A stretch of DNA of 64,000 bases from Minisyncoccota bacterium (lineage in GTDB: Bacteria; Patescibacteriota; Minisyncoccia; Phycocordibacterales; UBA9973): positions 14,187-78,186 of the forward strand of contig JBAZSF010000003.1 of assembly GCA_041662525.1 (NCBI GenBank). The letters run 5' to 3'. Position numbers and translations under genes: made by a program. Under the pieces are notes generated by a model, which did not search any database, was not told where the DNA came from, and saw only the letters and a list, made by a program, of their open reading frames with translations. This document shows positions 135 to 39,650 of the stretch, one piece after another (position 1 is the first letter of the stretch; every line of letters begins with the position of its first letter).

Positions 135-2759
135 TTATTTTTTATTCAAAACCTTAATCCTATACATGAATAACCATTTAGTGAATTCAACTAATAAAAC
201 ATTTAAAATACACCAACAAACTACCAACCACATCCAAGACAGAGGCATAGGAGCTATATCAAACAAATTTCTTATAAAAGGAATCGACATTGTTGCAACA
301 AGAATGCCAACACCTATAATTATAGCCACATTTAATTTTTTATTTGAAAATGGATTATATGAAAATATCGGCTTGTATAAACTTCTAAAAGAAAAAGCTA
401 TGACTAAAATATAAATAGAAAAACAAACAAAGAAGATTGAACGAACTATTTTTATATCAATATTAAATTGTAATAATACGTAATATAGAAGAAATATTAA
501 AATAGAACTAATAGTTCCAAGACCAAAAGACAGCATCTTTACTTCCGTTGTTAATAATTGTTTTTTAAATGATTCCTTGTTTATCCCTTTATCCAAATTG
601 TCATCGTAAGCAAAAGCAAGGGCGGGTAAACTACCAGTAAATAAATTTACCCATATAATCTGAAGAGCAGTAATAGGTAAAGCCATATTCATAATAAAAC
701 TCCCTCCAATAATAAATATTGAGTCAAAAGCATTGGACATTAAATAAATAAAAGTTTTTCTTATGTTCGCGAGGATCCTTCTTCCCTCGTCTATCGCCAT
801 GCTAATAGTTTGAAAATTATCATCCAAAAGAACTAAATCTGAGGCACTTTGAGCAACATCGCTTCCAGAACTAAGAGAAATACCGATATCCATAGATTTC
901 AAAGCAGGAGCATCATTAACACCATCGCCCGTCATCGCTACTATTTCTCCCAGATCACGATATAGATTTCCTATTCGAAGCTTGTCTTCAGGAGTAACTC
1001 TGGCAAATATTTTAATATTTTTTATTACATCTTTTAGTTGAGAATCAGTCATCAAATGGATATCTTCACCAGTCAAAACATCCTCATCTGTTATGTTCCA
1101 TCCGATACTTCGAGCAACTGAGATAGCGGTTCCTTTTAAATCTCCAGTTATTATTACAATCTTGACTCCATGTGACTCTATGTTTTTAACAGCAAAAGGA
1201 ACTTCTTCTCTAATTGGATCAAAAAAAGAAAGAATGCCTTCAAATGAAACGTTTTTTATTAAATTTTTTTTAATATCTTCTATATTTTTTGTTTTAAAAG
1301 TTCCGAGAGCAATTAATCTTTTTCCATTTTTACTGGCATCCTCTATCCAAGATAAAATCTTTATATAGGTATCTTTATCTACATCTGACATTTTTAGCAA
1401 AATATCAGGAGCTCCCATAATAATATAATTGTCTCCATCTCTAGAAAGAGAAAATTTATTAGTTGAATTGAATGGTAGACATAAATTATTTTCTTCTATT
1501 AAGGTTTTACGTAAATGTATATTATGGCAAGTTGAGGCCTTTGCGATATTAACCTCAAAAGGATGCCCTGTAAAATTCCATTTTTTTTCAATATCATCTG
1601 GATTTTGGACCAAAACGTCTATGTTTTTTAGAGATAATTTAATAATTTCTTTTTGTGCATGTGATAGGTTGGTTATGTTTGATTCTGAATAAATTTCTTT
1701 TTTTAAAACATCAAAAGTATAAACACCTACAAGTTGCATATCTGCTTTGGTTAGAGTACCTGTTTTATCAGTCATGATCAAAGTAGTTGATCCTAAGGTT
1801 TCTGCTGCTGCTAATTTTCTAATGATTCCTTTCTTAGAAGCTATTCTCACTGCTCCAACTGAAAGGATGATAGTCAAAGCAATCGGTAACGATTCTGGAA
1901 CTGCTCCTACACCAATCGCTGCTGATAAAATCAACATTTGAAGTATCGGTTCTCCTCTTGAGACACCAAGAATAAAAATACACATCACAACAAAAATCAC
2001 TAATGTAAAAATATACCAAGACAATTGACCAACTCCTTTTTGAATCGGAGTTACCGCTCTATCAGTATTTGAAACTAGATCAGCGATTTTACCTAGTTCA
2101 GTATTAATTCCAGTTTCCACAACAACTGCCGCATCAAAACCTTCCACCACCAATGTCCCAGCATAAACCATATTTGTACGATCTGCCACCAAAGAAGATT
2201 CCTTTATTGTCTCTGATGTTTTTGTTACAAATTCTGATTCTCCAGTTAAAATAGATTCATCTACTTTAAAATTATTGGAAGAAATAACGCGGGCATCTGC
2301 AGGAACTCTGGAACCATAAGATAATTTAATAATGTCTCCCGGAACTAACAAAGAAGAATCGATTTCCTGTTCTTTTCCATCCCTAACTACACGAGATCTA
2401 TCTTTTATATAGGTAACTAATTTATCTAAAGTATTTTCTGCTTGATATTCACGATACAAACCAAGACCAACATTTATTAAAACTGTGCTCATTATAATAA
2501 TCGTATTAATCCATTCATGCAAAAATCCAGTTAAAATAGCAGCTCCAACCAATATAAAAATAAGAGGGCTTATTATTTGCTTAAGAGCCAAATCGACAAT
2601 GCTTATTATTTTTTTATTTTTAAATTTATTAAGTCCAAATATTTTTAAACGTTTCTCCGCTTCTTCTTGTTTTAATCCATTAATTGAGGTATCTAATCCT
2701 GTCAATACTTCTTCGGCGGTAAAAAACCAGGGTGTTTGTATTTTTATTTTTTCTTCCAT
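135..2759 (-). CDS. P-type cation-transporting ATPase (P2/Ca2+-Mg2+ type)
   Basis: 874-aa ORF with phosphorylation motif DKTGTLT and hinge motif TGDGVNDAPALK; about 10 TM segments. Confidence 0.9.
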   Translation of the reverse strand: MEEKIKIQTPWFFTAEEVLTGLDTSINGLKQEEAEKRLKIFGLNKFKNKKIISIVDLALKQIISPLIFILVGAAILTGFLHEWINTIIIMSTVLINVGLGLYREYQAENTLDKLVTYIKDRSRVVRDGKEQEIDSSLLVPGDIIKLSYGSRVPADARVISSNNFKVDESILTGESEFVTKTSETIKESSLVADRTNMVYAGTLVVEGFDAAVVVETGINTELGKIADLVSNTDRAVTPIQKGVGQLSWYIFTLVIFVVMCIFILGVSRGEPILQMLILSAAIGVGAVPESLPIALTIILSVGAVRIASKKGIIRKLAAAETLGSTTLIMTDKTGTLTKADMQLVGVYTFDVLKKEIYSESNITNLSHAQKEIIKLSLKNIDVLVQNPDDIEKKWNFTGHPFEVNIAKASTCHNIHLRKTLIEENNLCLPFNSTNKFSLSRDGDNYIIMGAPDILLKMSDVDKDTYIKILSWIEDASKNGKRLIALGTFKTKNIEDIKKNLIKNVSFEGILSFFDPIREEVPFAVKNIESHGVKIVIITGDLKGTAISVARSIGWNITDEDVLTGEDIHLMTDSQLKDVIKNIKIFARVTPEDKLRIGNLYRDLGEIVAMTGDGVNDAPALKSMDIGISLSSGSDVAQSASDLVLLDDNFQTISMAIDEGRRILANIRKTFIYLMSNAFDSIFIIGGSFIMNMALPITALQIIWVNLFTGSLPALAFAYDDNLDKGINKESFKKQLLTTEVKMLSFGLGTISSILIFLLYYVLLQFNIDIKIVRSIFFVCFSIYILVIAFSFRSLYKPIFSYNPFSNKKLNVAIIIGVGILVATMSIPFIRNLFDIAPMPLSWMWLVVCWCILNVLLVEFTKWLFMYRIKVLNKK

Positions 2760-2850
2760 AAATTCATTTTAACAAAAAGTTCCAATTTTTACTAAAACAA
2801 ATAAAATAACCTATATAAATTATAGTTCGTAATTTGGGCTCCGAACAATA

Positions 2851-3228
2851 TTACTTCACATCCACCACAACCTTAAACCCGCCGTAAGCAAAACGCTTCA
2901 TGTCAAAAGGCATGGGCATATTTTCATACTTTTTATCTTTACTCATCTCGGCAATGACTTTTTTATTTACCTGATCACGATGCGCCTTGGACTTATAGAC
3001 AATAAAAGAAAACCATACAGTTTCGGCTTTTCCCGCCTTTGCCATTTTTGGAAACGTGAGCGACGGAGTCCCGCCCATATTTGGGCTCATGTCATCACCC
3101 ATGCATTCCTTATAATCAAGAGCGCCATGTTTGAGCCAAACCCTAGCTCCCTCTCGCGCCATCTTGCGATAAGCAACGAAATTTTTCTTGGGCACCACTA
3201 GCACAAAACCATCTACATATTTTGCCAT
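2851..3228 (-). CDS. DUF1428 family protein
   Basis: 125 aa starting MAKYVDGFVLVVPKKNFVAYRKMA, typical of DUF1428 proteins (family recall from memory). Confidence 0.55.
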   Translation of the reverse strand: MAKYVDGFVLVVPKKNFVAYRKMAREGARVWLKHGALDYKECMGDDMSPNMGGTPSLTFPKMAKAGKAETVWFSFIVYKSKAHRDQVNKKVIAEMSKDKKYENMPMPFDMKRFAYGGFKVVVDVK

Positions 3229-3255
3229 AAAATTATTATTAGTTATTATTAATCC

Positions 3256-6751: not shown

Positions 6752-6957
6752 TCTTTCCTTACAGGAACAGTATACCTTTTGTACTTTTTTCTCCCGCCAC
6801 AGCGGAATCAAAAAGACACAAAAGCTTTTCGCTCCCTACACGAAAATAAAGCAGTTTATTTTCTCCCCGGAGCCGTAAAAAGTAAAACGCCTGCTTTCGC
6901 AGACGTTAAACTTTTTTGGCTCCGGGGGTAGGGATCGAACCTACGACCAATCGCTTA

Positions 6958-7533
6958 CACTTTATCTCCTATTGCTAGAAGTGTGGACTATATCATCTTC
7001 ATATCTTTTTTAAAAAAGACTTAGAAGCAAGGCGCTTCCACCGACAACTTGTCGATGTACTCCAATAAATGGATAGTCTCTACACCTTCCCTAACACAAT
7101 GTTAGGGCTTGGCTCGGGATTACCCTGAGAGTTTGTCTCGAAGGGCTTCCCCGAATTCACCTTGTTTTTCAACCTACCTTTCAATAGGAAGCTGCGTAAT
7201 ACCTTCATGTATTTCCATATGACAATTTGCACACAAGAGAACGCATTTTTCAATTTCTTTTTTAATACGTTCCCAAGATCTCGTTAACCCCCTAGAAGAA
7301 AGATCAAATTCTTTTTCTTTTGGATTAATGTGATGAAAGCTTAAAGCTCTCTGACATTTCTTATAGCCACATAAAATACATTTACCGCCTTTATGATCTC
7401 TAGCCATTTCACGAAGTTTTTTTCTTCTTCGGCTAACAGCTAAAACCATATATTCTCGACGATCGGCATAGGTTCTGGTTTCTACTCTTTTCTTTTTGGT
7501 ATACACAAGTAGATTATACCACAAACCTCTGAC
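6958..7533 (-). mobile_element. group I self-splicing intron (IC3-like core) carrying an HNH endonuclease ORF
   Basis: A 576-nt insertion sits between anticodon-loop nucleotides. The 5' exon ends in U and the intron ends in G. The 3' 216 nt contain AAUCCCGAGCCAAGCC and GGGAAGGUGUAGAGACUA ... UAAGUC (P7-like GACUA/UAGUC), resembling cyanobacterial tRNA-Leu group I introns (from memory). Confidence 0.7.
7174..7449 (-). CDS. HNH homing endonuclease (intron-encoded)
   Basis: Motifs CILCGYKKCQ ... HHINP ... CANCHMEIH give an HNH zinc-finger nuclease signature. The ORF track starts at a TTG (7524); the first ATG gives 91 aa. The ORF lies wholly inside the intron. Confidence 0.75.
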   Translation of the reverse strand: MVLAVSRRRKKLREMARDHKGGKCILCGYKKCQRALSFHHINPKEKEFDLSSRGLTRSWERIKKEIEKCVLLCANCHMEIHEGITQLPIER

Positions 7534-7690
7534 ACAGGCGACCGCTCTACCGCTGAGCTACCCCGGAATTTATTTATCTTTAAAAAGAACTTTTCTTATA
7601 GTAACAGAAATTTAAGAAAAAACAAATTGAAAAATTACTATTATGGTTTGCATTTTAAACAAAATAAGGTAGAATAGTTTTGTTAGATAA

Positions 7691-7766
7691 GGGCCCATAG
7701 CTCATCTGGTAGAGCGCCTCATTTGCAATGAGGAGGTAAGGAGTTCGAGTCTCCTTGGGTCCACCA
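7691..7766 (+). tRNA. tRNA-Ala(UGC)
   Basis: 76-nt cloverleaf GGGCCCATAGCTCATCTGGTAGAGCGCCTCATTTGCAATGAGG...TTCGAGT...TGGGTCCACCA with anticodon TGC and the G3-U70 Ala identity pair; CCA is encoded. Confidence 0.9.
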
Positions 7767-8628
7767 TAGAAGACTCAACAGGCAGAAATGCCTGTTTTGT
7801 TTTGAAAACACAAGCTACTTCTCTTGTTCCAAATATTTTATTTTCAAACGTCAGACCTTGGGGAAATTGGAACTCCTGTAATTTAATTTTTATGCTTATA
7901 TTTTTTATTGCAGACCATATTTTACTTGGCTGTTTTAAATATTCTTCCATAAATTCAATCATCTTTTCATAATCAGCATCACTATTGGGAATATTAAAAA
8001 GCGAAGAACTCGTTTCCATTAATTTAATTTCTATAATTTCTAATTGTTGCTTCAATATATTGTCATTAATTACCCCATCAAGATTTTTCTTAATTATTGC
8101 AGACTGTCTTTCATTTAATTCTTGTATACATTTTTGTAATTTCTCTGCTTCTTTTCTTTTTTCAGAAGTTGCTTTAATAAGATTATCTCGCACAAGTATT
8201 TTTAACTTTTGATAATGTTTCTCATCCAGTCCATATCTATCCATATATTCTCTAAAACTTTTTTCAAATTCATCTCTTGGGTAGCTTGATTTTTCATTCC
8301 CAAAACGATAAAAAGGATATTTTTTGCCACTTCCACTAGTAGACCAACTTCCTGTTAACACCTTACCATCATTATTTTTTACAAACTTACGAAGAGGAAA
8401 ATCTGGGTGATTTTTAAGATAAGCAGAGTGCTTACGTCCTCTACTTTTTAAAACCCTTTGCACTTGATTAAAAAGTTCTTCTGAAATAATGGGTTTAAAA
8501 TTACCCTTGTGCTTCTCCCCAAACTTTACAATCCATCCCGCAAAAAGTTCATTGGTAAGCATTGAATAAAAATATCCTTTTGAGAAAGGCTTACCTTTTT
8601 TATTCAATAAGCCCTCTTTTACCATCAT
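7702..8628 (-). pseudogene. large serine recombinase C-terminal part (recombinase domain, degenerate Zn ribbon, coiled coil); frameshifted relative to the N-terminal fragment
   Basis: Motifs GKPFSKGYFYSMLTNELFAGWIV and FKPIISEELFNQVQ are typical of the serine-integrase recombinase domain. The zinc-ribbon cysteines are absent. The frame is open from about 8700 and overlaps the N-terminal ORF frame. The last 21 codons are antisense to tRNA-Ala. Confidence 0.7.
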
Positions 8629-8657
8629 TCTTCGTACTTCTTCTGTTGGATAAGTAT

Positions 8658-9254
8658 TTAAGGCAATAAGTTCAAATGTTTGAGTATTAAAGGAGACATT
8701 ATTTCATCCTGTGCAATAGTAGCTCTACCCGCTACTTGAACGTTCTTATAACCCACTGTAGCCATCCAAACATAGCGACCATCTCTCATAGCATCTTTCA
8801 TTCCACCTGCACAACGTTCTGCACGTACATCATTATCAAACTGTGCTACGTTAGCAAACATATTTTCCATAAATTTACCTTGTGCTGTATCTTCAAAATA
8901 CTCTGAAGTAGATTTAATCTCTATCCCATATTTTTTAAAGAAAAGGCGAAGATGGCTGTAATCTTCAACACTGCGAGAAAGACGGTCTACTTTATATATA
9001 ACAACTACTCCTACCCTATTCTTTTTATCTGAGCAAAAAGCCAGAAGTTTTTGAAGCTCCGTTCTATTTGCTGTTTTTGCACTCTCCCCCTGTTCAATAA
9101 AAATCTCCGTAATATCATAATCATTTTTAAAACAATATTCCCTACAGATTTTTTCTTGTGTACTCAAACTATTACCTTCATCAACCTGCTCCTTTGTAGA
9201 AACTCTCACATATATTACTGCTCTTTTTTTAACTACATTGTTTACTAAGTTCAT
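8658..9254 (-). CDS. large serine recombinase, N-terminal catalytic (resolvase) domain fragment
   Basis: AVIYVRVSTKEQ catalytic Ser motif and resolvase-domain architecture. Ends just before the next ORF, in an overlapping frame. Confidence 0.85.
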   Translation of the reverse strand: MNLVNNVVKKRAVIYVRVSTKEQVDEGNSLSTQEKICREYCFKNDYDITEIFIEQGESAKTANRTELQKLLAFCSDKKNRVGVVVIYKVDRLSRSVEDYSHLRLFFKKYGIEIKSTSEYFEDTAQGKFMENMFANVAQFDNDVRAERCAGGMKDAMRDGRYVWMATVGYKNVQVAGRATIAQDEIMSPLILKHLNLLP

Positions 9255-9465: not shown

Positions 9466-9574
9466 TTACTACATCATTCTTTTAATCTCTAGCTGTCTAT
9501 GCAATGCAAGGATTTCTAAATTAGATTAATAAAAAAATCTTTCCCACAAAGAAAAGATTTTCGACATTATCTTT

Positions 9575-19667: not shown

Positions 19668-19722
19668 AAATTTAATTGTAATACAAAATTCAAAAAAGTA
19701 AAGGTAATCGTAATATTATTTC

Positions 19723-20946
19723 TTAAGACAACCTTCCTTTAAAATCTTCATAACTGAATTTTTTTACAAGTTTAAATTTGCCTGATGATTTTCTAAGAAA
19801 AATTGATGGCAATCTGATACCGTTAAAAGTATTGGTTTTTACCATCGTGTAAATAGCCATATTTAAAAATATTAATTTATCACCAATGGCTAATTTCTTT
19901 TTGAAAGTATAATTGCCTATTACATCTCCAGCTAAGCAACTCGGCCCACCGAGACGATAAACATGAGGGTATTTTTTACCTGTATCAGCCCCTAGGATCG
20001 TCGGTTTGTATGGCATTTCAAGAATGTCTGGAACATGCGCGGCAGCCGAAAAATCAAGAATAGCTATATTCATGCCATTATCAATAATATCCGCCACGCT
20101 AGTCACCAAAACCCCAGCATTCAATCCTACTGCTTCACCTGGCTCCAAATAGACTTCTAAGTGAGGATATCGTTTTTTAAAATCCTTAATTGTTTTAATT
20201 AATAGATCAACATCATAATCCCCACGGGTGATATGATGTCCACCACCGAAGTTCATCCATTTCATTCTTGGTAAAAATTCTTTAAATTTTTCTTCAAAAG
20301 ATTCAAGAGTTCGCACCATAGCATCAGCATTAAGCTGGCAAAGATTGTGATAATGCAAGCCCTCTATGCCGTCTAATTCTTTTTCTTCAAAATTTTTTCT
20401 AATTATGCCCAATCTAGAATTCGGTCCGCAAGGATCATACATCGGTGTTCCAGCTTCGCAATGCTCTGGATTTACCCGCAAACCACACGATACTTTCTTC
20501 TTGCTTTTTAAAATTATTGGTCGAATTCTTTTCCACTGAGAGAAAGAATTAAAAATCAGATGATCAGAATATTTTATATATTCGGCAATATTTTTTTCCG
20601 TATAAGCCGGTGAAAAAGTATGCGTTTCTCCACTAAATTCTTCACATCCTAAACGAGCTTCATCGATAGAGCTAGCTTCGGTTCCAGCTAAATATTTTTT
20701 TACTAACGGAGAAATACTAAACATAGAAAACCCTTTTAAAGCCAAAAGAATTTTACACCCAGCTTCTTTTTGGACTCTTTTTAATATCTTCATATTATGC
20801 TCTAACTTTTTTTCATCTACCACAAAACAAGGAGTTTCTAGATTTGCAAAATCTTCTGCCTTCCATCCCTGACCAGTGCTCCAAGGTTCAGTTGATGGCT
20901 CTCCATGACCCATTTGAGTTTTAATTGAACATATTTGATTAGCCAT
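19723..20946 (-). CDS. nspC: carboxynorspermidine/carboxyspermidine decarboxylase
   Basis: TPCFVVDEKKLEHNMKILKRVQKEAGCKILLALKGFSMF matches the CANSDC N-terminus; about 400 aa with an alanine-racemase-like fold. Confidence 0.8.
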   Translation of the reverse strand: MANQICSIKTQMGHGEPSTEPWSTGQGWKAEDFANLETPCFVVDEKKLEHNMKILKRVQKEAGCKILLALKGFSMFSISPLVKKYLAGTEASSIDEARLGCEEFSGETHTFSPAYTEKNIAEYIKYSDHLIFNSFSQWKRIRPIILKSKKKVSCGLRVNPEHCEAGTPMYDPCGPNSRLGIIRKNFEEKELDGIEGLHYHNLCQLNADAMVRTLESFEEKFKEFLPRMKWMNFGGGHHITRGDYDVDLLIKTIKDFKKRYPHLEVYLEPGEAVGLNAGVLVTSVADIIDNGMNIAILDFSAAAHVPDILEMPYKPTILGADTGKKYPHVYRLGGPSCLAGDVIGNYTFKKKLAIGDKLIFLNMAIYTMVKTNTFNGIRLPSIFLRKSSGKFKLVKKFSYEDFKGRLS

Positions 20947-39574: not shown

Positions 39575-39650
39575 GCCGCCTTAGCTCAGTTGGTAGAGCA
39601 ACACTTTTGTAAAGTGAAGGTCCTCGGTTCGAATCCGAGAGGCGGCTCCA
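39575..39650 (+). tRNA. tRNA-Thr(UGU)
   Basis: GCCGCCTTAGCTCAGTTGGTAGAGCAACACTTTTGTAAAGTGAAGGTCCTCGGTTCGAATCCGAGAGGCGGCTCCA; anticodon loop TTTGTAA; CCA encoded. Confidence 0.85.

Follow-up and report, generated by a model that had tools for sequence, protein, structure and literature searches.

Group I introns between positions 35 and 36 of tRNA-Asn genes have been described from Patescibacteria by Nakagawa et al. (bioRxiv 10.1101/2025.07.03.662931, July 2025; mSystems January 2026, PMC13011429). In 95 complete Patescibacteria genomes, 15 tRNA-Asn and 3 tRNA-Asp genes were found to be split at this site, with the split tRNA-Asn often being called Thr(UGU) with a 33/34 intron by ARAGORN and tFind (PMC13011429). 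Two of these 35/36 introns self-spliced in vitro with precise junctions and mutation of the omega-G to C blocked the reaction; guanosine-dependent self-splicing and a sequenced ligated tRNA were reported for the intron of GCA_016700035.1, a homologue of the one analyzed here (PMC13011429). Four Patescibacteria tRNA-Asn introns were furthermore noted to encode an HNH protein (PF01844), with the HNH-bearing copies including GCA_016699425.1, GCA_000503835.1, and GCA_001029735.1 (PMC13011429). According to the accessible part of an earlier, purely computational preprint (10.1101/2020.01.27.920355), the number of intron-interrupted tRNA classes rose from 4 to 21; its class 'Asn.4Ug' is equated with the 35/36 tRNA-Asn site in PMC13011429, and the accessible part of the preprint text itself mentions neither Asn nor endonucleases.

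The window, i.e., the whole 64-kb stretch of DNA analyzed in this study, very probably carries a gene of this kind, namely a tRNA-Asn(GUU) gene of a Patescibacteria-type bacterium which is split between positions 35 and 36 by a self-splicing subgroup IA intron containing an HNH gene. An initial reading made from the sequence only had considered such an arrangement to be unreported; since the site, the tRNA, the HNH protein and the splicing have all been published (PMC13011429), the locus is a further member of a class already described with experiments. The features of the locus, together with a second tRNA gene used for comparison, are the following:

7567-7534, minus strand: tRNA-Asn 5′ exon, 34 nt, TCCGGGGTAGCTCAGCGGTAGAGCGGTCGCCTGT
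7537-7534, minus strand: 5′ strand of P1, formed by the anticodon-loop bases CUGU, which can pair with GCAG at 7195-7192
7533-6958, minus strand: group I intron of subgroup IA, 576 nt in length, with omega-G at 6958
7520-7498, minus strand: start hairpin GGUAUA...UAUACC in the P1 loop, conserved
7506-7174, minus strand: ORF of the predicted HNH endonuclease, 110 aa from GUG 7506
7195-7192, minus strand: internal guide sequence GCAG (3′ strand of P1), within the ORF codons Thr-Gln
6957-6917, minus strand: tRNA-Asn 3′ exon, 41 nt, TAAGCGATTGGTCGTAGGTTCGATCCCTACCCCCGGAGCCA
6886-6907, minus strand: terminator-like hairpin with U tract, 10 nt past the CCA, a consensus match only
39575-39650: tRNA-Thr(UGU) of the window, with G1-C72, C2-G71, and U73

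The 5′ exon comprises tRNA positions 1-35 and ends in C32 U33 G34 U35 (CUGU), and the 3′ exon starts with U36 A37 A38 and runs to the discriminator G73 followed by an encoded CCA. When both exons were joined, ARAGORN called a tRNA-Asn(gtt) of 75 nt that folds into a regular cloverleaf, the anticodon GUU, the pair U1-A72 and G73 being read from the sequence. The pairing of the two halves as one tRNA-Asn, the 576-nt insertion after U35 at 7533-6958, and the U and G that end the 5′ exon and the intron, respectively, had all been recognized in the sequence-only reading and are hereby confirmed. The insertion lies between U35 and U36 of tRNA-Asn(GUU), which is the site of the Patescibacteria 35/36 class, and a corresponding intron-less allele would read GGTCGCCTGTTAAGCGATTGG plus flanks. 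Upstream of the tRNA-Asn gene, the promoter scan yielded no sigma-70-like site; a promoter match at 7014-6987 is located inside the ribozyme and was treated as a chance match.

A search with the Rfam model Intron_gpI (RF00028) matched 7261-6965 of the minus strand along the full model (1-253) with 68.0 bits, which exceeds the gathering score of 50 (E-value 4.2e-15), and thereby bore out the earlier assignment as an ORF-containing group I intron. For the individual helices, a secondary structure drawn up for the window sequence was evaluated by counting pairs in an alignment of 66 ribozymes (the window, 60 ORF-bearing and 5 ORF-less relatives), with slid 3′ partners and 500 shuffles as controls. 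The helices downstream of P1 are:

7188-7173, minus strand: P2 hairpin CCUAUU-GAAA-GGUAGG; both partners changed in 6 of 6 pairs, pairing in 96% of cells
7164-7158 with 7034-7028, minus strand: P3; pairing in 98% of cells, both partners changed in 4 pairs
7154-7149 with 7119-7114, minus strand: P4; both partners changed in 8 of 11 pairs of P4 and P5 together
7146-7142 with 7126-7122, minus strand: P5; counted together with P4
7113-7111 with 7086-7084, minus strand: P6; invariant
7107-7101 with 7095-7089, minus strand: P6a; both partners changed in 7 of 7 pairs
7078-7074 (GACUA) with 6990-6986 (UAGUC), minus strand: P7, the guanosine-binding helix of the pseudoknot; invariant in 66 of 66 sequences
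7073-7070 with 7064-7061, minus strand: P7.1; pairing in 98% of cells, both partners changed in 2 of 4 pairs
7057-7050 with 7046-7039, minus strand: P7.2; pairing in 80% of cells, both partners changed in 8 of 8 pairs
7027-7024 with 7000-6997, minus strand: P8 outer helix; pairing in 99% of cells, both partners changed in 3 of 4 pairs
7019-7014 with 7009-7004, minus strand: P8a inner helix; variable
6981-6966, minus strand: P9 hairpin CUUCUA-GCAA-UAGGAG; both partners changed in 5 of 6 pairs

Across the 66 sequences, 90.1% of cells form standard pairs as compared to 35-47% with slid partners, both-side changes occur in 49 of 67 pairs, and none of the 500 shuffles matched any of the observed measures. 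Covariation was found for P2, P3, P4/P5, P6a, P7.1, P7.2, P8, and P9, and these compensatory changes support the P3-P9 core with its P3/P7 pseudoknot, in which P3 (span 7164-7028) encloses P4, P5, P6, P6a, the 5′ strand of P7, P7.1, and P7.2, and the P4-P6 domain spans 7154-7084 of the minus strand. P6 and P7 are invariant across the alignment and hence uninformative on covariation; the strands of P7 are in accordance with the AGACUA/AUAGUC consensus of RF00028. The UAAGUC formerly proposed as the partner strand of P7 turned out to be situated in P8, the true partner being the UAGUC at 6990-6986.

The subgroup had to be revised as well. A core of subgroup IC3, as assumed in the sequence-only reading, is compact and lacks P7.1 and P7.2, whereas in the intron of the window approximately 40 nt with two covarying hairpins fill the position between P7 and the 3′ strand of P3, a region that appears as a 37-nt insertion relative to the Rfam consensus. 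Because these two hairpins are P7.1 and P7.2, the layout is that of subgroup IA and the intron belongs to IA, not IC3. Both elements are listed among the class-distinguishing features of group I introns (PMC3984707), and 25 of 28 of the 35/36 introns were placed in subgroup IA, with none of the Patescibacteria tRNA introns falling into IC (PMC13011429).

The remaining helix, P1, is formed by the CUGU of the anticodon loop and the GCAG at 7195-7192, which was located through the ORF-less relatives and is kept as (A)CGCAGCUUCC in the ORF-bearing ones. It consists of only 4 bp and is assigned from sequence and position and not from covariation, because both strands are (nearly) invariant in the relatives. 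In sequence and position, the U35.G wobble at the 5′ splice site and G6958 as last base of the intron are those of a group I intron. A competing guide candidate, GUAGGU at 7177-7172, which can pair with the exon sequence GCCUGU, was dropped as it is the 3′ half of P2, for which covariation was found. For P10, a pairing of UUA at 7199-7197 with the exon UAA (with a one-base gap) was considered; it is not kept in the ORF-less relatives, and no convincing P10 was found. Of the two pairings from which the exact junction was to be derived, P1 places the splice site at U35, and P10 does not contribute.

In the ORF-less relatives, only 5-24 nt separate the 5′ splice site from GCAG as compared to 338 nt including the ORF in the window, and the ORF is therefore located in the loop of P1. 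It reads from GUG 7506 (alternatively from TTG 7524, yielding 116 aa) to the stop codon UAG at 7176-7174 and overlaps the ribozyme by 22 nt, such that the guide sequence (7195-7192) and the 5′ strand of P2 (7188-7183) are inside the ORF and the stop codon is inside the 3′ strand of P2. Restricting the ribozyme to the last 216 nt of the intron, as had been done previously, is incompatible with this overlap. The last seven codons, Thr-Gln-Leu-Pro-Ile-Glu-Arg, and the stop codon (7197-7174) consequently double as guide sequence and P2. Since the same codons encode both, the intron-borne proteins possess a near-invariant C-terminal ...GITQLP; in free-standing copies of the gene (see below), this end has drifted (ITKIPK, ISILPK, MVQLK). 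At the other end of the ORF, the probable start codon GUG (7506-7504), which is AUG in most relatives, is located at the 5′ edge of the 3′ strand of the start hairpin. This hairpin was recovered by RNAfold in most of 34 related leaders and precedes the free-standing HNH copies as well. By analogy to phage intron nucleases, it might serve as a brake on translation. The placement of the ORF in the P1 loop and the sharing of its terminal codons with the guide sequence and P2 go beyond the description by Nakagawa et al.: PMC13011429 contains no mention of an ORF in the P1 loop, of an overlap with guide sequence and P2, or of free-standing HNH genes.

The encoded protein matched the Pfam HNH family (PF01844) with 21.4 bits, a value exactly at the cut-off, and PHROG HNH families down to 1.4e-29, and its ORF is intact, so that the previous identification of a complete HNH endonuclease holds. 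The family comprises 728 homologues that are 60-95% identical to the window copy. Among 26 sequences, residues C43, C46, H58, H59, C92, N94, C95, H96, and H100 do not vary; they constitute the zinc-binding and catalytic CxxC...HH...CxxC(N)CH..H motif of HNH proteins. An AlphaFold (AF2) model reached a pLDDT of 79.8, and its top Foldseek matches in the PDB were all HNH nucleases (Cap5, the Gme HNH nicking enzyme 4h9d, the HNH domain of Cas9, and T4 endonuclease VII), with weak values of E ≥ 0.05 and TM ~0.4 despite probabilities of up to 0.97. A sequence search of the PDB with the HNH profile yielded nothing closer than the nuclease domain of a group II intron maturase (E 0.022). Relative to the window copy, dN/dS ranged from 0.03 to 0.24 with synonymous sites being mostly saturated, and all 60 ORFs that carry both motifs used to locate the 90-aa core were intact over this core. 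From these observations, the protein is an HNH nuclease that is under selection and probably active. It is most likely a homing endonuclease; the strong purifying selection on the ORF fits an active nuclease and does not by itself establish homing.

The same HNH family is present in at least 540 species-level genomes, as revealed when one genome of each species was searched with the HNH alignment; of the relatives obtained, at least 540 in number, 80 loci were kept. The split tRNA-Asn gene was present in 66 of these 80 loci. In 65 of the 80, the HNH ORF resides inside the split gene, with introns of 511-716 nt, and in one further locus (L007) the ORF is inside the intron as well, the locus being cut by the contig end. 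The nearest relatives of the window copy (91.7% nucleotide identity over tRNA and intron, 95% amino acid identity of the HNH protein) are metagenome-assembled genomes labelled Patescibacteria, Nomurabacteria, Saccharibacteria, or Paceibacterota. Compared with the locus to which its tRNA-plus-intron segment is 91.7% identical (L001), the window shares only one other stretch, which is 67% identical, located 12 kb away in the window and not syntenic. This contrast in identity weakly hints at horizontal spread.

In 12 of the 80 loci, the HNH gene is found outside the tRNA-Asn gene, whose 35/36 intron is ORF-less. The free-standing gene is located immediately upstream in the same orientation (L013, L018, L019, L048, and L077), downstream of the tRNA-Asn (L066), in divergent orientation (L038, L047, L059, L060, and L071), or in convergent orientation with an overlap of the tRNA 3′ end (L022). 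In a neighbour-joining tree the free-standing copies are scattered among the intron-borne ones, and 6-9 changes of state, never a single one, were needed over 50 bootstrap trees, a count derived from short proteins and simple trees. It is therefore rated as a lead that the free-standing state may have arisen several times. One example is provided by the free, divergent copy of L047 and the intron-borne copy of L015, whose ribozymes are 89% and whose HNH genes are 82% identical to each other. It is conceivable, and put forward here only tentatively, that the HNH gene and its start hairpin form a module that repeatedly changed places between a free-standing site beside tRNA-Asn (upstream, downstream, or divergent) and the P1 loop, where its reading frame continues into the guide sequence and P2. 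Were this to be the case, a single gene family of Patescibacteria would preserve the stages leading from an ORF-less ribozyme with a neighbouring nuclease to a mobile intron, and tRNA-Asn introns would be spread by HNH proteins more often than is implied by the published view of limited transfer. The interleaving of free-standing and intron-borne copies bears on the question of how mobile group I introns are assembled.

For the intron of the window itself, splicing is inferred by homology, with the in vitro result belonging to the homologue. In the proposed mechanism, the whole gene would be transcribed as a single precursor, in which C32-U35 would pair with the GCAG about 340 nt downstream and form P1, placing the U35.G wobble at the splice site. 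The core, consisting of P3-P9 with P7.1 and P7.2, would then bind a free guanosine in P7, and this guanosine would cleave after U35. Subsequently, the omega-G at 6958 would take the same binding site and ligation of the exons would yield a normal 75-nt tRNA-Asn. As to mobility, the HNH protein may cut intron-less tRNA-Asn genes near the anticodon, upon which repair would copy the intron into the cut gene.

It is less likely, although the possibility carries some weight, that the intron splices while its HNH protein does not take part in homing, i.e., that the intron is vertically inherited as a fixed resident of the only tRNA-Asn gene and that the protein has another role, such as a help in splicing, or is decaying. 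Such a long residence would agree with the saturation of synonymous sites between most relatives, which points to old lineages, and with the fact that an intron-less tRNA-Asn target was found in none of the fetched loci. Nevertheless, decay of the protein is difficult to reconcile with the low dN/dS values and the 60 of 60 intact ORFs described above, and the identity of the tRNA-plus-intron segment to L001, as opposed to the 67% of the non-syntenic stretch, hints at spread. Moreover, since the HNH gene occupies different positions in related lineages, inside the intron or beside the gene and on either strand, it appears to move. With regard to a help in splicing, HNH intron proteins are not known to act as maturases.

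A self-splicing, probably mobile intron between U35 and U36 of tRNA-Asn remains the preferred interpretation. As GU is present at both junctions, two splice readings exist, Asn(GUU) with the intron at 35/36 or Thr(UGU) with the intron at 33/34, each with a U before the intron and a terminal G (G6960 in the case of Thr). Default ARAGORN reported only tRNA-Ala and tRNA-Thr for the whole window and no tRNA-Asn elsewhere in the 64 kb. When introns were allowed for, ARAGORN recovered the split gene from the genomic sequence under the label tRNA-Thr(tgt) i(33,576). Besides this label and the terminal bases, BLAST matches of the spliced tRNA among E. coli records speak for Thr; these are weak matches, all of them to plasmid-borne genes annotated as tRNA-Thr (80% over 60 nt), too weak for an assignment of the isotype. 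The pairing of GCAG with CUGU puts the U.G wobble on U35 and not on U33, and the base that would end the intron in the Thr reading is an A instead of a G in 34 of 66 relatives. U1-A72 and the discriminator G73 are features of bacterial tRNA-Asn, and both are present in the gene; the real tRNA-Thr(UGU) of the window (39575-39650) differs from it, with an identity of 63% to the spliced tRNA. The identity to the tRNA-Asn of GCA_016700035.1, for which the ligated product was sequenced, amounts to 83%. All 66 related split genes gave tRNA-Asn(gtt) when spliced in silico; their intron boundaries were set by CTGT and GTAA motifs, which partly builds in the terminal G, and it is the folding of the spliced products as tRNA-Asn that provides the independent check. 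Finally, the same miscall has been published, and the sequenced spliced product of the homologue proves the 35/36 junction (PMC13011429). Taken together, a tRNA-Thr(UGU) gene with a 33/34 intron is highly improbable. Even less credence can be given to the idea, for which no observation speaks, that the halves are unrelated pieces of pseudo-tRNAs and that the resemblance to a ribozyme arose by chance or marks a dead relic. Against it stand the Rfam E-value of 4e-15, the recurrence of the same split gene in 66 of the 80 related loci, nearly all helices showing compensatory changes, and the lack of any other tRNA-Asn in the 64-kb window.

The assignment as tRNA-Asn has a practical side. Default tRNA finders miss the split gene and intron-aware finders label it as tRNA-Thr, with the consequence that carrier genomes appear to be without tRNA-Asn and are scored as less complete, a point already made in PMC13011429.

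Among known systems, the tRNA introns of subgroup IC3, i.e., those in cyanobacterial and plastid tRNA-Leu(UAA) and in the tRNA-Ile of Azoarcus, differ from the intron of the window in lacking P7.1 and P7.2, in being usually ORF-less and in being inserted at 34/35 or 36/37. Phage introns of subgroup IA with homing endonucleases, such as T4 td with I-TevI and the SPO1 intron with I-HmuI, have an IA core with P7.1 and P7.2 and carry their nuclease in a peripheral loop, with an RNA hairpin at the start codon limiting translation. The intron of the window shares this core, the peripheral location of the nuclease and the start-codon hairpin, whereas the phage introns reside in protein-coding genes, have their ORFs in other loops and encode larger multi-domain nucleases. 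The cyanobacterial tRNA-fMet intron with I-Ssp6803I (Bonocora and Shub, 2001, cited in PMC3984707) likewise combines a bacterial tRNA intron with an anticodon-directed homing endonuclease; it differs in that I-Ssp6803I is a PD-(D/E)XK and not an HNH enzyme, in its insertion at 33/34 and in its cyanobacterial host. In collaborative homing, as described for the psbA intron of cyanophages with F-CphI (PMC6083498) and for T4 mobE with I-TevIII (PMC2790892), a resemblance in gene arrangement exists to the 12 related loci in which a tRNA-Asn gene with an ORF-less intron of the same family has the HNH gene as its neighbour. This likeness does not extend to the window itself, and it concerns bacterial chromosomes instead of phages. 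By far the closest are the introns described by Nakagawa et al., which agree with the one of the window in host tRNA, insertion site, the U at position -1, omega-G, IA-type core, and, where an ORF is present, HNH family, and also in being miscalled by ARAGORN as Thr(UGU) with a 33/34 intron. In line with this, the introns in their Table S3 show the same start hairpin, RTYADR... ORF, ...CGCAGC(C/U)U..., P2 and core. The intron of the window thus does not differ from them in kind and represents a further copy, here from an uncultured genome.

The end of the HNH ORF carried in the intron of the split tRNA-Asn(GUU) has a double use, as its final seven codons and the stop codon (window 7173-7197, minus strand) also serve as the P2 hairpin and as the guide sequence, i.e., the 3′ strand of the ribozyme helix P1 (GCAG at 7195-7192). 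Because the ORF end is shared with these two elements, a ribosome completing the ORF would unfold P1 and P2. An RNA structure is also found at the beginning of the gene, and its 3′ strand has the probable HNH start codon at the 5′ edge:

Window 7498-7520, minus strand: conserved hairpin GGUAUA(C)-loop-UAUACC, the same element being present in the leaders of the related loci L001-L043

Extended gene calls translate this hairpin into a spurious 'WYT..VYT' peptide. The hairpin is also located upstream of free-standing HNH copies, i.e., genes of the same family adjoining a tRNA-Asn with an ORF-less 35/36 intron, which were found in four arrangements:

L013, L018, L019, L022, L038, L047, L048, L059, L060, L066, L071, L077: loci with a free-standing HNH gene

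These copies are polyphyletic among the intron-borne ones, the 50 bootstrap NJ trees calling for 6-9 changes between the free-standing and the intron-borne state. By analogy with phage intron nucleases, the start-codon hairpin is probably a translational control element travelling with the HNH gene. Separately, L071 contains multiple tandem, partly repeated tRNA-like copies (2805-3229, minus strand; CGGGCTGTAGCATAGTGGTA...), and an intron-containing tRNA-Gln called there by ARAGORN is false, having been produced by merging such copies.

The closest relative, L001, is 91.7% identical to the window over tRNA plus intron (L001 2383-3100, window 6917-7625). The only further stretch in common is non-syntenic and 67% identical (L001 1-686, window 19717-20390). 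The element may have a more recent origin than the genome around it. Close to its split tRNA-Asn, L001 also carries a bacterial RNase P RNA class A (721-1039, minus strand; 104.7 bits); no RNase P match was obtained anywhere in the 64-kb window. Patescibacteria-type split tRNA-Asn contigs also occur in MAGs labelled as Burkholderiales, Nitrospira, and Gammaproteobacteria (L004, L047, and L070). These labels probably reflect binning errors, transfer being a possible alternative.

Next to the split tRNA-Asn, two further genes overlap on opposite strands:

Window 7691-7766, plus strand: tRNA-Ala(UGC), overlapped by the 3′ end of the recombinase
Window 7702-9254, minus strand: large serine recombinase in two ORFs, with an in-frame TAA (8660-8658) splitting them

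The N-terminal part of the recombinase matches Resolvase (5e-34) and the remainder the Recombinase domain (2.5e-7). The split gene looks like an integrase that has decayed, from an element that had inserted at tRNA-Ala, 124 nt away from the tRNA-Asn gene. Further along the window, a SAM riboswitch match (9564-9666, minus strand) is marginally over its threshold (44.6 vs. 44.4), and a LOOT RNA match (10314-10433, plus strand) reaches 81 bits vs. a gathering score of 46.

The standard Rfam Intron_gpI model overlooks part of the tRNA-Asn 35/36 intron family. The ORF-less introns of L018, L022, L048, and L077 score below its gathering score; in all four, the split tRNA was found by ARAGORN and P7 motifs are visible.
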